In this document: piece by piece, positions 47,036 through 53,242 of the stretch | Layout of the letters: every line of letters begins with the position of its first letter | How positions within the stretch are numbered: position 1 is the first letter of the stretch | DNA from: a virus | DNA length: 64,000 nt | Strand: one strand, 5' to 3' | Virus genome (UHGV): UHGV-1370141 | Notes under the pieces: generated by a model | Seen by the model: the letters and a program-made list of their open reading frames with translations, nothing else | Databases searched by the model: none | Told to the model about the DNA's origin: nothing | Made by a program: the position numbers and the translations under genes

Positions 47036-47711
47036 ATAGCGCAGAATCACGTGGGTCGACACCGACCCACTCTGCCATAAACCGGATGTGTTCCTTGAAC
47101 GGATTCACACCATCGCGTTTAAGCTGCTCTACCGTCTCTTTTGTAAGTTCCGGCGTTAGCAGGGCAGGGTGCGTAATGGTAAAGCTAGGGATAGGCTTTT
47201 TCAGATGTTTCGCATTGAGTTCAATCCAAGCGAACCAATCGTACATTATCCAACAATCCCAAGCTGTCGCTAAACGACCCGGCGTAAGTTCCGAATGCGG
47301 CCACGACACTAACTCAACCTGCACCATATCGTAATAGATACGGAACATCTGCAAGAACGTTTGCATTTCTTGGTCAGTAAGATCAGTATACGGCCAGGTG
47401 TTAATTGTCAGCGTCGGTTTTTCGATAGGCGAATGCATCTCGATTTCGAGTAACATACATTCGAACTCGTTCTTCATCGTCAACAACAGTTCGGTGGGTT
47501 CTGCATTCATCAACGCGCGTTTATCGCGTTTCTGATATTCCTCTTTCCAATTCTCAAACCCCAAGACAGTCGCCCATTCCTCCGTAAAACGACGACGATA
47601 AACGTCGTAATCCATAATTTCCAATCTTTCAGGTTTGATGGCTTTGACCCAACCGATTCGGGTGTCAAACAACGCATCGATATCAATCAAAAAACGTCGA
47701 GAAAATCTCAT
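46989..47711 (-). CDS. hypothetical protein (240 aa)
   Basis: ORF. Confidence 0.5.
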   Translation of the reverse strand: MRFSRRFLIDIDALFDTRIGWVKAIKPERLEIMDYDVYRRRFTEEWATVLGFENWKEEYQKRDKRALMNAEPTELLLTMKNEFECMLLEIEMHSPIEKPTLTINTWPYTDLTDQEMQTFLQMFRIYYDMVQVELVSWPHSELTPGRLATAWDCWIMYDWFAWIELNAKHLKKPIPSFTITHPALLTPELTKETVEQLKRDGVNPFKEHIRFMAEWVGVDPRDSALFSLARPKKDAQTPQS

Positions 47712-48376
47712 GACGGATGGCCTATGTTGTTACCAATGTGCATCGCTTTCAGATACGCAGACCAGGTACGTGTTGCTTTCGAACTGGTACGTTCTGCTCC
47801 CGGCAGGTCAATACGTCCCTTACCGGTTTGACGTAACGATTGATAGAACGCACGTTGTAAAGCTTCGTTACCCCCACGCGCCCACAGAAACTCTTTCAGT
47901 GTCCAGTCGTGACCATCGGAGTACATGATGTACGCTTCTGGGAAAGATACACCAGATGCTTTAGAAGGACCAACAACTTGACCGGAGAGTTTATCACGAA
48001 CTTTGTCGTTCTTCGCTACTGCCATTTTCTTTTCTTGCATCTGCGTTTGACGACGCGCAGGCAAGCGCAATACCAGATGTGGGTAGCGGGTACGATGGAA
48101 AACACCCGTTTTCGGCTCAGTTAACCACAATCGCTGTTCCAGGTTCAAACCTAAAACACGACATAGCTTAACGTTTCGCATGTGGTCGATTTTAACTTTA
48201 CTGCCGACCGGGTTGTAAATCGGTAAGCCTTCACGAAGACGATTAAACTGTTCGTCCGTCATTCGAGCAAAGGCTTTCTTTGCTGCCTCTGCGTTAATCC
48301 CAGAGGGGTCAACCAGGCTTAAGATTTGTAAGGCGTAAGCTTCTGCTTTTTTACGCCGCGCTGGATCGAGTTTCAT
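47708..48376 (-). CDS. hypothetical protein (222 aa)
   Basis: ORF. Confidence 0.5.
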   Translation of the reverse strand: MKLDPARRKKAEAYALQILSLVDPSGINAEAAKKAFARMTDEQFNRLREGLPIYNPVGSKVKIDHMRNVKLCRVLGLNLEQRLWLTEPKTGVFHRTRYPHLVLRLPARRQTQMQEKKMAVAKNDKVRDKLSGQVVGPSKASGVSFPEAYIMYSDGHDWTLKEFLWARGGNEALQRAFYQSLRQTGKGRIDLPGAERTSSKATRTWSAYLKAMHIGNNIGHPS

Positions 48377-48650
48377 TTTCTACCGCCTTACGCAAGTTGG
48401 AAAGTGTCCCTGCTTCGAGGGTTTCAATCCAATAACTGATGTCGTCGGTGTTTTCAGGTACGTCGAATTTCACCGGCGGGTAACCGTAGTGTTCGAGTAA
48501 CTTGGAATAATATTCACCGACCTTTAAACAAAAAGATTCACGATCGGGAAAGAAAGTAGCGAAAGTCTCACGAAATGCCGCTGCTGTTTCCAGACTGACG
48601 CTGGCTAAACCTTCGCTTAAGCGCTCCACAATCTCCGTTTGATAACGCAT
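48351..48650 (-). CDS. hypothetical protein (99 aa)
   Basis: ATG with AAGGAG SD immediately after a hairpin. Confidence 0.5.
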   Translation of the reverse strand: MRYQTEIVERLSEGLASVSLETAAAFRETFATFFPDRESFCLKVGEYYSKLLEHYGYPPVKFDVPENTDDISYWIETLEAGTLSNLRKAVENETRSSAA

Positions 48651-48665
48651 AACGACTCCTTAGCT

Positions 48666-48705
48666 AGGGTAGGGGATTACCCTACCCTAACGCTTTTATT
48701 TCTTT
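48666..48705 (+). other. stem-loop (agggtaggg / ccctaccct, loop gatta) with T-run only on the plus strand, inside a minus-strand gene string
   Basis: 9-bp perfect stem; oriented as a terminator for antisense (plus-strand) transcription. Confidence 0.4.
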
Positions 48706-50192
48706 TTGGTGAGGAACTTCGGTTCCAGGCCGTCCACGGCCATACCCAGAATCGTACGGGCAGTTAACGTGCGTTTACCACCTTTCGTTTCTTGGTCTTT
48801 AAACATCCAGTATTCTACGGTGTTCTCCAGAATCTCATTCCAATCCCATTTCTCATCAATGAGTTTGTAGATTTCTTCCATCGTGAGGTGGTATTTAACC
48901 TCTAAACGATGGTAGTTGTTCTGCATGTACGCAATCGCGGCCGTGATTTCTAATGCCCGACGCAGTTTCGGGTTATCGTCGATCATGTCGCGAATCGTCG
49001 TACGCTGGAATTTAACACCAGGCAGAATCTGGAGTTCTTTAATGGAACCACCGCTACCGCTGGATGTAAATCCAAATTCGGATTTTTTCAGAGTGTCACT
49101 CAGGTAATGCCACAGGCTCAGGTGATACAGTAGACCCATCTCTTGCGAGAAGATCATCTGGAACTTCACGCCCGTGTGACCGCCTTTAGCACGGTACTGC
49201 GTAAAGGTGATAACTTTCAGGTCGTTAACCGACGCGTTCATGGCTTTTGAACGTGCGGTTGGGTAAAGTTCTTCGTTAACACCGGTCTGGGCGTTATAAC
49301 TCTGGTCTTTTTTCAGCTCGCCTGATTTTGTCGCAACAATAAACGAGTTAGTCAAGAAACTTAATTGACGACGAGGAATCCCTGCGAATTTGAGATCGTC
49401 GTTCGCATCGTCCAGCAGTTTCGCGTTTGCTTTCTGTCCTTGACGACCGCCCGCCATCGCCTTACCGGAGTCATCGGCCATCTGTGCAACAAAGCCCATG
49501 TAGAAACCACCACGGGCAAACGCAGACGGCCAACGGCTCATCATGTTCGATTTCTGTAAGGCGTCGTGGGCGTTGAGGATGTTCTGATCGGAATCACCGA
49601 TATCCGTTTTAGCGTGCTTGTCTTCCAGAGAAGACGAGTGCCACTCCGACAGGGAGTCGATAGAATACAGCCACGGGTCAAGGATTTCTTTTTGCTTACG
49701 ACGAACCGGGTCAAGGAACGGCGTTACACGCGTTTTACCAGACATATACTGCTTGAAGCGTTTTTCCACTTCATCACGAATATAGTCACTGTAATATTGT
49801 TCCCCTGGCATCACGTCAGAACCAACGAGGTTATAACGACCTTCGTGAATAAGTTCCAGTACCGAAGTTCCATCGTCAATACCGTTGGCGTGCATGGCAG
49901 AAATATAACCGGTCTCTAAGCGATCGAGGGCAGCAGACACTTCGGTATCGTATTTCGAACCCCACTCCGCTTTATAGCGTTGCAGGATTTGGAAGATACA
50001 GAAATCCAACAGTGTGGATTTGAAGGTGTTACCACGACCCGCGAAACCCATGATGTGGGCAAAACCACCGTTAAGGTAGTATAAACCATCTTCGCCTCTT
50101 TCGTAGTTGCCTAAGGCGTGGTCCATGATGGTATAAACGTTAAAACGAGGACGAATTACTTCACCGATAACTTGCTTAGTTGGGCCTGCCAT
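48696..50192 (-). CDS. possible RecA/UvsX-like ATPase (498 aa), degenerate P-loop
   Basis: GFAGRGNTFKSTLL resembles the UvsX-type Walker A (GPSKSFKS-like); otherwise unassigned. Confidence 0.3.
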   Translation of the reverse strand: MAGPTKQVIGEVIRPRFNVYTIMDHALGNYERGEDGLYYLNGGFAHIMGFAGRGNTFKSTLLDFCIFQILQRYKAEWGSKYDTEVSAALDRLETGYISAMHANGIDDGTSVLELIHEGRYNLVGSDVMPGEQYYSDYIRDEVEKRFKQYMSGKTRVTPFLDPVRRKQKEILDPWLYSIDSLSEWHSSSLEDKHAKTDIGDSDQNILNAHDALQKSNMMSRWPSAFARGGFYMGFVAQMADDSGKAMAGGRQGQKANAKLLDDANDDLKFAGIPRRQLSFLTNSFIVATKSGELKKDQSYNAQTGVNEELYPTARSKAMNASVNDLKVITFTQYRAKGGHTGVKFQMIFSQEMGLLYHLSLWHYLSDTLKKSEFGFTSSGSGGSIKELQILPGVKFQRTTIRDMIDDNPKLRRALEITAAIAYMQNNYHRLEVKYHLTMEEIYKLIDEKWDWNEILENTVEYWMFKDQETKGGKRTLTARTILGMAVDGLEPKFLTKKK

Positions 50193-51414: not shown

Positions 51415-52299
51415 CTAAAAACCAGATATAAAGGTGGGCGCAATCCATCGCCACTCCTGCCAGCGTGGTCCTGTCATTGGCCCACACCAGACCCGTTTCC
51501 AATGTGCCCTGCGTATGTGCGCTGCGCGATGAGGCGTTAAACAGATTCTCCTGCCTTCCCTGCGTTGTTTTTCTAAGTCTTCGCGTTGTACTGGACTTAC
51601 GTCAACAACGACAGGTTCTCTCCGTGGGAGGATTTCTGTATCAGGTACGTAACGTGTCGTTCTACCACGGTATTCCCGTCTCTCGCGTTCCGATTTCTTC
51701 ACCCGCGAGGAAAGATATAAACCGATATGTACCTCATCCAGAAGTTCCTCGTCCTTTGACTCGTTAGCAAAGTAAGGCTCTAAACTAACAAAGTCATCTG
51801 CCTTTCTGTTGAACCGATAAATCTTGGTTGTCCAACAGTGCCGCTGATTTATCTCCACCCATCGTAAAACGAACAATACTTCTTCACCTTCGAATTTACG
51901 ACGACCGATAAAGAGCGTAGCAGGAAGTTCGTTAATCTTGACAGTCACGGAAAAGGTGAATGAAGGGATGGCTTCAATCCACGCGTACGGAATATCCGTT
52001 AAACGTTCTGTGTCTGCAAGTAATCCCATCAGCTCTTTATCAGAGATAATTTCAATACCTGCGTATTGCCAACCCAAACCTAACGACTGACGAATAGAAT
52101 ACGGCACCTGTTTGGTGGTGCCGAACTCACGGTACGTTGGGTCGTTAACGGGCAGAAAGGTTACGGGAAGTTGTCTCTTGTGTTCCCTGACAAACGTTAG
52201 AAAACGATCTTCTTTCAGACCAAACAAGTCTTTGTGTGCAGTCTCTATAGCTTCACTAATACGTCGAAGCGTGTCTCCATAAATTCTGCGTCTTAACAT
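51415..52299 (-). CDS. hypothetical protein, member of tandem paralog pair (294 aa from ATG at 52299; track ORF extends to 52422)
   Basis: ATG with AGGAG SD 7 nt upstream; C-terminal motif AAHIRRAHWKRVWCGP...WIAPTF shared with 52310..53242. Confidence 0.55.
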   Translation of the reverse strand: MLRRRIYGDTLRRISEAIETAHKDLFGLKEDRFLTFVREHKRQLPVTFLPVNDPTYREFGTTKQVPYSIRQSLGLGWQYAGIEIISDKELMGLLADTERLTDIPYAWIEAIPSFTFSVTVKINELPATLFIGRRKFEGEEVLFVLRWVEINQRHCWTTKIYRFNRKADDFVSLEPYFANESKDEELLDEVHIGLYLSSRVKKSERERREYRGRTTRYVPDTEILPRREPVVVDVSPVQREDLEKQRREGRRICLTPHRAAHIRRAHWKRVWCGPMTGPRWQEWRWIAPTFISGF

Positions 52300-52309
52300 T
52301 ATAATTCTC

Positions 52310-53242
52310 CTAGTCTTGCGTGTGGGGTACGTAGCCTCGGACAAATGTCGGTGGAATCCAGCAAAGTTTTCTTTTTCTTTCACCGTTTCTTGGGCCAACC
52401 CAGTATCTACGCCAGTGTGCACGACGTATATGTGCAGCTTTGGCGTGTTTGATACCCTGCATGGCTTTCAAGTCGGTGTTAAATCCTTTTAGATATTTTA
52501 CTTGTCCTGGTGTGATATCAACCTTAACATCACGTTCTCGCGGTTTAACGTCGTAACTAATACTACCGTTCTTTTTGATTTCCCTGAACTTAATATCATT
52601 AAAAGACTCCCTGTAATTAGGCGGGATTAGCGTGCACAGAAATATCATCGAAGTGGCGGCTTTGGCCAGAGATAACCATAACATCTTCTCTTCTTCGGTC
52701 TGTACGCCAGTTGTATAATCAATTTCAACAAGCCCGTTTCCTACACTACGAAGCTCTAACGAACAAGTGGCAATTGTGGTAACTCCTTCTGTTAACCCGT
52801 AATCAGTATTTGTAGCGATTATAATAAACCTTTTCTTCCCATTTTTTCGATAGCCGAGAAAGAAAGTCTCATCCTCTTTACCTACGTCGATTGCCACAGT
52901 CCATGCGGGTATAAAGTCCAACCATTCTTCAGGGAATTTACTGGGCATCTCAGTCTCGAAAACAAGTTCTCTAAGTGCTTGGTTGGATATTAAGGAAACC
53001 CCGCCATATAGCCACCCGATTGCCAACGTTTGTGCGTGAAGGGAACGTGGATCTTTGAGACCTAACTCAGTGTCGTAGGGTATAAAGGAATTGGTTAAAT
53101 GGTTACGATTCTTTTTTATCCATTTCGAGACAGGATTTTCTTTTGTTTGGTTTTCTTCCATGACATTTTCTAGATGCTGACTCCCCATTTGTCTAAGACA
53201 GTCTTTAATACCTTTTACTTTTTTACTTTTGTACAAATACAT
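52310..53242 (-). CDS. hypothetical protein, member of tandem paralog pair (310 aa)
   Basis: ATG with AGGAG SD; C-terminal AAHIRRAHWRRYWVGP...WIPPTF and internal GWLYGGVSLIS blocks shared with 51415..52299. Confidence 0.55.
   Translation of the reverse strand: MYLYKSKKVKGIKDCLRQMGSQHLENVMEENQTKENPVSKWIKKNRNHLTNSFIPYDTELGLKDPRSLHAQTLAIGWLYGGVSLISNQALRELVFETEMPSKFPEEWLDFIPAWTVAIDVGKEDETFFLGYRKNGKKRFIIIATNTDYGLTEGVTTIATCSLELRSVGNGLVEIDYTTGVQTEEEKMLWLSLAKAATSMIFLCTLIPPNYRESFNDIKFREIKKNGSISYDVKPRERDVKVDITPGQVKYLKGFNTDLKAMQGIKHAKAAHIRRAHWRRYWVGPRNGERKRKLCWIPPTFVRGYVPHTQD

Follow-up and report, generated by a model that had tools for sequence, protein, structure and literature searches.

The closest described relatives of the protein studied here are the UvsX/RecA homologs of nucleus-forming jumbo phages. 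In phiKZ, gp152 was named Nlp1 and recognized as a UvsX/RecA homolog that carries fused cargo into the phage nucleus; its import requires Imp1 and Imp2, and the import adaptor Imp2 has been reported in Pseudomonas phages only (10.1101/2024.03.27.586873). Phage deleted for nlp1 replicated more slowly, formed small plaques, had a competitive index of 0.05 and was sensitive to the CBASS nuclease NucC; Nlp1 was described as a recombinase that confers fitness and is required for NucC resistance (PMC12676376). GFP-tagged Asesino gp238 localizes inside the phage nucleus (PMC11724907), the UvsX of RAY (gp150) is nuclear (10.1101/2023.02.24.529968) and that of PCH45 (gp72) is nuclear and non-essential (10.64898/2025.12.19.695335). 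In the ATPase sites of UvsX and RecA, UvsX E92 and RecA E96 are the water-activating Glu, while RecA K248/K250 and UvsX K246/R248 are trans-acting basic bridges of the filament ATPase site (PMC3016280). In the literature searched, we found no published ATPase, filament or strand-exchange assay on a protein of this clade.

The gene, its orthologs and its neighborhood

The DNA analyzed, here called the window, is a stretch of 64,000 nucleotides in which the original prediction had placed a 498-aa protein at 48696-50192 without stating its strand. The reading frame proved real and lies on the minus strand, as do all protein features given below. The ORF list and translation show a single long and complete ORF that starts with ATG, runs for 498 codons and ends in TAA, and the plus-strand frame of the same interval is broken by many stops. 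A GGAG Shine-Dalgarno sequence is located ~7 nt 5' of the ATG. By tblastn, matches were found in 278 phage records, nearly all of them from phiKZ-like jumbo phages of Pseudomonas, Erwinia, Salmonella, Vibrio, Serratia, Aeromonas, Klebsiella and Ralstonia, and many of the records label the gene 'putative UvsX' or 'UvsX-like recombinase'. The top matches (SPN3US, Proteus phage 7, phiEaH2, Asesino and Stratton) have 77-81% amino-acid identity. An exhaustive profile search of a library of 1.84 billion proteins returned at least 876 cluster representatives (50% clustering, E ≤ 1e-3) with a typical length of 460-530 aa, and a metagenomic protein (P0001, 123 member sequences) was 96% identical to the query. 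Matches in these numbers, 278 records and 876 representatives, together with the 96% identity to a metagenomic protein, put the gene far beyond chance.

Asesino gp238, annotated as UvsX, is 81% identical to the query over the full length, contains the identical P-loop GFAGRGNTFKSTL and is flanked by the same gene order; the ~19% of residues that differ mark no functional distinction between the two. SPN3US, phiEaH2 and Stratton have orthologs of the same kind. More distantly, phiKZ gp152 (Nlp1) is a full-length homolog with 28% identity (E = 2e-46), is syntenic beside a split RNAP-beta gene and has in common with the query the motifs N-x-F-K-[ST], YDTE, IDS, AH, R-x-K and SQ. Full-length homology to both gp152 and gp238, combined with the conserved neighborhood, identifies the query as an ortholog of chimallivirus UvsX/Nlp1. 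The protein family is therefore already known, and the window adds a new ortholog with 81% identity to characterized members.

Downstream of the recombinase gene, the minus strand encodes a 99-aa ORF (48351-48650) and a split RNA-polymerase beta fragment; upstream are another 99-aa ORF and then an opposite-strand gene. This order matches Asesino gp240-gp236 and phiKZ gp149-gp153. The polymerase fragment (47708-48376, 222 aa) has phrog_3233 'RNA polymerase beta subunit' as its match (2e-93) and phiKZ gp149 and Asesino gp240 as its syntenic counterparts; its start overlaps the end of the 99-aa ORF 48351-48650 by 26 nt. It is a piece of the split multisubunit RNA polymerase typical of phiKZ-like phages.

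A perfect hairpin with a 10-bp stem, TAGGGTAGGG-taatc-CCCTACCCTA, occupies 48665-48689, within the 45-nt gap from the recombinase stop codon to the AAGGAG ribosome-binding site of the next gene. Because the T-run that follows it is found only on the non-coding (+) strand, the hairpin as transcribed does not qualify as a canonical intrinsic terminator; it may affect stability or processing, or act as a terminator of a phage type. A scan for promoter and terminator consensus sequences around the recombinase gene yielded no more matches than the shuffled expectation. Further upstream, the window contains two tandem, diverged paralogs on the minus strand (51415-52422 and 52310-53242; 25% identity, E = 1e-24) where Asesino has the single gp235. 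Both match phrog_6160 (unknown function), neither matches Pfam, and they have a common C-terminal motif, AAHIRRAHW[KR]R.W.GP..G.R....WI.PTF. As listed, with a GTG start, the downstream paralog shares 113 nt with the upstream ORF, so that its true start is probably further in.

At the DNA level, the region shares ~74% identity with the genomes of Asesino, phiEaH2 and SPN3US, and for the window (1-64000) the closest sequenced isolates reach only ~74% identity in DNA and 81% in protein. Given this low identity to sequenced isolates and the 96% identity to the metagenomic protein P0001, the window appears to derive from a relative of the Seoulvirus/Erskinevirus group that is uncultured or unsequenced.

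Several relatives depart from the common length. A metagenomic protein of 773 aa (P0180) consists of an N-terminal ATP-dependent DNA ligase (PF01068 and PF14743, aa 11-261) fused to a UvsX-like recombinase (aa 285-759), which is a Rosetta-stone hint of a role in DNA repair unless the fusion is a gene-calling artefact. Five others, P0021-P0024 (635 aa) and P0195 (716 aa), are ~52% identical to the query and carry N-terminal extensions of 155-250 aa. No Pfam model matches these extensions, nor do they resemble the upstream 99-aa gene of the window; a fusion with that gene as the origin of the 155-aa extension of the 635-aa relatives was rejected on the same comparison. Homologs from Salmonella phages SPFM1-15 (P0030, P0031, P0033, P0037 and P0038) are 280-477 aa long and combine high HMM scores with BLAST query coverage of only 4-12%; in those assemblies the same gene is apparently frameshifted or mis-called.

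Relationship to RecA and UvsX

The query matches phrog_97 'UvsX-like recombinase' at 1e-54 (aa 10-468, profile positions 43-351), the family to which T4 UvsX, taken from the T4 record, also belongs (9.4e-105, profile positions 20-355). T4 UvsX (PDB 3IO5) is in addition detected by Pfam RecA (PF00154) and T4_UVSX_C (PF21134), whereas the query is not: neither the query nor any of 30 relatives reached the gathering thresholds of these two models. Searches of Pfam, NCBIfam and PDB sequences with the single sequence or the 30-sequence profile gave no meaningful match, and weak matches to Esterase_PHB, urease-gamma and cellulase were dismissed as noise. The adjective 'divergent' in the original prediction is thus fair, as no sequence model of Pfam, NCBIfam or PDB recognizes the query or any of the 30 relatives. 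Bacterial RecA (PDB 3CMU, 8AMD and 7JY6) is only 13-15% identical to the query.

For finer comparison, 194 family representatives drawn from the 876 of the profile search were aligned, and this alignment is the basis of all conservation counts below. By hhalign, the 30-sequence profile aligned weakly to the single T4 UvsX sequence, and only over the segment from Walker A to the catalytic Glu. The result improved against the UvsX family and was convincing only with the 194-sequence profile, which aligned to the T4-type UvsX family alignment with 84% probability and an E value of 7.4e-6 (query 7-246, T4 26-204). A forced long alignment obtained at very low mact was discarded, Walker B being mis-registered in it. 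The profile alignment between the C-terminal halves of the query and UvsX was not significant, nor was that of the family profile to the single E. coli RecA sequence, in which the motif register was nonetheless consistent.

Structural comparison places the query in the same family. The AF2 model contains the RecA-fold alpha/beta ATPase core, and RecA and UvsX top the fold searches made with it, followed by DnaB (17.3), RadA helicase (17.1), KaiC (16.7) and Sak4 (11). A fold search of viral models returned, in order, family members (TM 0.8-0.88, one of them named UvsX), phage RecA/UvsX proteins and helicases. The original prediction had named the lack of any RecA-fold match as the outcome that would speak against a recombinase, and that outcome did not arise because the fold searches are led by RecA and UvsX. 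Together with the membership of phrog_97, this ranking bears out the proposed RecA/UvsX-like recombinase. It also disfavors the alternative offered at the time, a distinct ATPase, since recombinases outrank helicases, KaiC and other RecA-fold ATPases. Readings as a helicase (DnaB/RadA), as KaiC or as Sak4 were rejected on the same ranking.

A broader form of that alternative is that the protein is a RecA-fold ATPase working outside strand exchange, such as a helicase or translocase, a mediator or Rad51-paralog-like factor, or a Sak4-type ssDNA-annealing protein, and that the name UvsX in so many records is a mere habit of annotation. The structural ranking, the conservation pattern described below and the genetics of phiKZ make this unlikely.

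A UvsX-type Walker A motif

The segment GFAGRGNTFKSTLL (aa 49-62, 50007-50048) runs from the last part of core strand beta1 through the P-loop into the beginning of helix A; the AF2 model has a strand at residues 47-52 and then a helix at 58-72. Within it, Walker A reads GRGNTFKS (aa 52-59, 50016-50039) and is in register with GPSKSFKS of T4 UvsX in the hhalign alignment. The canonical GxxxxGK[ST] is literally absent, as had been noted from the sequence, because position 57 of G52-R-G-N-T-F57-K58-S59 is Phe where the second Gly is expected. Describing the loop as degenerate, on the other hand, does not hold. The pattern GxxxxFK[ST] is common to the query (AGRGNTFKS) and to the active ATPase T4 UvsX (AGPSKSFKS), and F65 and K66 of the T4 protein are invariant in the UvsX family alignment. 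Across the 194 representatives, K58 and S/T59 are each kept in 193 and N55 in 189, while position 57 is Phe in 134, Tyr in 30 and Gly in 16. The full GxxxxFK[ST] is present in 123 members and the fully canonical GxxxxGK[ST] in 13. Because K58, S/T59 and N55 are kept while position 57 varies among Phe, Tyr and Gly, the alignment argues that the Walker A of the family is functional and that in this lineage its second Gly can give way to an aromatic residue, rather than the site decaying. The odd-looking ATP-binding loop is a normal, conserved version of the UvsX type; Phe in place of Gly is a hallmark of the lineage, common to T4 UvsX, and is not to be taken as degeneration.

A pseudo-ATPase, in which the P-loop no longer binds or hydrolyzes ATP and the protein serves the phage nucleus as a structural component or cargo adaptor, would fit the failure of the motif to match the textbook GxxxxGK[ST]. 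It would also fit phiKZ gp152, whose P-loop ASRPNNFKT lacks both glycines, even the first, while keeping N-x-F-K-T, and the fact that orthologs have been used experimentally mainly as import tags. The same GxxxxFK[ST] is, however, present in T4 UvsX, annotated as a DNA-dependent ATPase in the T4 record, and 13 family members have the canonical Gly. Lys58 and Ser/Thr59 (193/194 each) are accompanied by Glu84 (191/194), Asp179 (194/194) and R334 and K336 (193/194 each), a degree of conservation that is not expected of a dead site in a family diverging to <30% identity. With the structural ranking and the phiKZ genetics also against it, we consider a pseudo-ATPase very improbable and retain the reading of a UvsX-type ATP-binding site.

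Further catalytic and candidate DNA-binding elements

The remaining elements of a RecA-type ATPase site were located by alignment and in the model. YDTE (aa 81-84, 49941-49952) aligns with YDSE of T4, so that E84, at the position of UvsX E92 and RecA E96, is the presumed catalytic Glu; its spacing of 26 from the Walker A Lys is that of UvsX. The Walker B strand WLYSIDS (aa 174-180, 49653-49673) contains D179, with WLYSIDSL aligned to VVVFIDSL of T4 and a model strand at 174-178; S180 is kept in 190 of the 194 representatives. The core strand FYMGFVAQ (aa 230-237, 49482-49505) ends in Q237, which aligns with T4 H195 and is presumed from this alignment to be the allosteric switch residue, the counterpart of RecA Q194 and UvsX H195. 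The family uses His (162/194) or Gln (29/194) at this position, the choices of UvsX and RecA, respectively; phiKZ gp152 has His where the query has Gln. The catalytic set of Lys58/Ser59, Glu84, Asp179 and Gln237 is conserved under strong purifying selection.

Two candidate DNA-binding loops flank the switch strand. The L1-like region DIGDSDQNILNAHDALQK (aa 198-215, 49548-49601) contains IGDS, resembling EIGDSHMG of RecA L1, and has the length of the RecA loop, longer than L1 of T4 UvsX. G199, N204 and K214 are kept in 182, 174 and 187 of the 194 representatives, and K214 aligns with UvsX K173 within the significant hhalign segment, whereas the register of IGDS with RecA L1 was seen only in a non-significant alignment. 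Directly after the switch residue, as L2 is in RecA and UvsX, lies a putative L2-like loop (aa 238-266, 49395-49481) with conserved K258 and L260. Model pLDDT falls below 50 only at 242-258, inside this loop, as expected for L2 without DNA.

R334-A-K336 (49185-49193), at the tip of a beta-hairpin formed by strands 325-335 and 343-349 in the AF2 model, is a candidate for the trans-acting basic bridge, as suggested by conservation and spacing: 17 residues separate the basic residues from the next invariant Gly in RecA, UvsX and the query. R334 and K336 are likened to RecA K248/K250 and UvsX K246/R248, in a half of the protein whose profile alignment is not significant. The L1 and basic-bridge assignments are accordingly given as candidates because the profile alignments behind them are non-significant.

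Departures from RecA and UvsX

The protein is enlarged at three places. Between the catalytic Glu and Walker B, spacing and hhalign gaps place a first insertion of ~45 aa in the region aa 99-172 (49677-49898), which also holds a beta-hairpin (154-171); from Glu to Walker B the query has a spacing of 95 residues, versus 48 in RecA and 51 in UvsX. A second insertion of ~45 aa, placed by spacing at aa ~293-324 (49221-49316), separates L2 from the basic hairpin, with 97 residues from the switch residue to the first basic residue versus 54 in RecA and 51 in UvsX. The C-terminal domain (aa 354-498, 48699-49133) is mostly helical in the AF2 model, with pLDDT of ~90 or more, and is also enlarged: 145 residues follow the invariant Gly in the query, 85 in RecA and 126 in UvsX. 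The phrog_97 match extends into this domain, to aa 468. The two insertions and the larger C-terminal domain have no known counterpart.

At the other end, the query is shorter. RecA and UvsX polymerize through an N-terminal helix packed on the neighboring subunit. Compared with T4 UvsX, the query is without the ~22 N-terminal residues that contain this polymerization helix, and has the two insertions and a longer C-terminal domain in addition; bacterial RecA has a canonical GPESSGKT P-loop and the N-terminal helix and is without the insertions of the query. Query residue 7 aligns with T4 UvsX residue 26, and the family has a median of 14 residues ahead of the first core strand, versus 36 in T4 UvsX. 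No helix is predicted in aa 1-20 of the AF2 model. Judged from alignment and model, the family lacks the N-terminal polymerization helix of RecA and UvsX, and because this helix is absent, homology does not explain any filament formation by the clade.

Proposed function and implications

We conclude that the ORF very probably encodes an ATP-dependent strand-exchange recombinase of the UvsX/RecA family from a nucleus-forming jumbo phage (phiKZ-like, SPN3US/Asesino group), the ortholog of phiKZ Nlp1 and Asesino gp238. The orthology, the RecA-fold core and the conserved catalytic set are observed directly; recombinase activity would follow from homology and from genetic work on distant orthologs (28% identity). 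By analogy with RecA and T4 UvsX, ATP would be bound in the P-loop at the subunit interface, where R334/K336 of the neighboring subunit would complete the ATPase site. The protein would polymerize on single-stranded DNA through the L1-like (IGDS...) and L2-like (aa 238-266) loops, and the filament would perform homology search and strand exchange, which may serve recombination-dependent repair and replication of the phage genome inside the phage nucleus. As for its published orthologs, the protein would be synthesized in the cytoplasm and then taken up into the proteinaceous phage nucleus; nuclear import of the query is inferred from its 81% identity to gp238. Since Imp2 is reported only in Pseudomonas phages, its import route may differ from that of Nlp1. 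In phiKZ, loss of the ortholog slows replication and sensitizes the phage to NucC (PMC12676376).

As a discovery, the gene itself carries little weight: its orthologs are annotated UvsX, serve as routine nuclear-import tags and have published knockout phenotypes. The clade is of greater interest, being large (at least 876 representatives at 50% clustering), escaping Pfam and NCBIfam models and being without the canonical N-terminal filament-forming helix. Tentatively, and with the odds against it, the chimallivirus UvsX/Nlp1 clade could be a structurally distinct branch of recombinases that, in the absence of the N-terminal helix, assembles on DNA through another interface, perhaps the insertions or the enlarged C-terminal domain, and the same surfaces might be determinants of nuclear import. 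Because the clade escapes these models and is without the helix, a structure of its filament would be informative for the evolution of recombinases and for cargo recognition by the phage nucleus.
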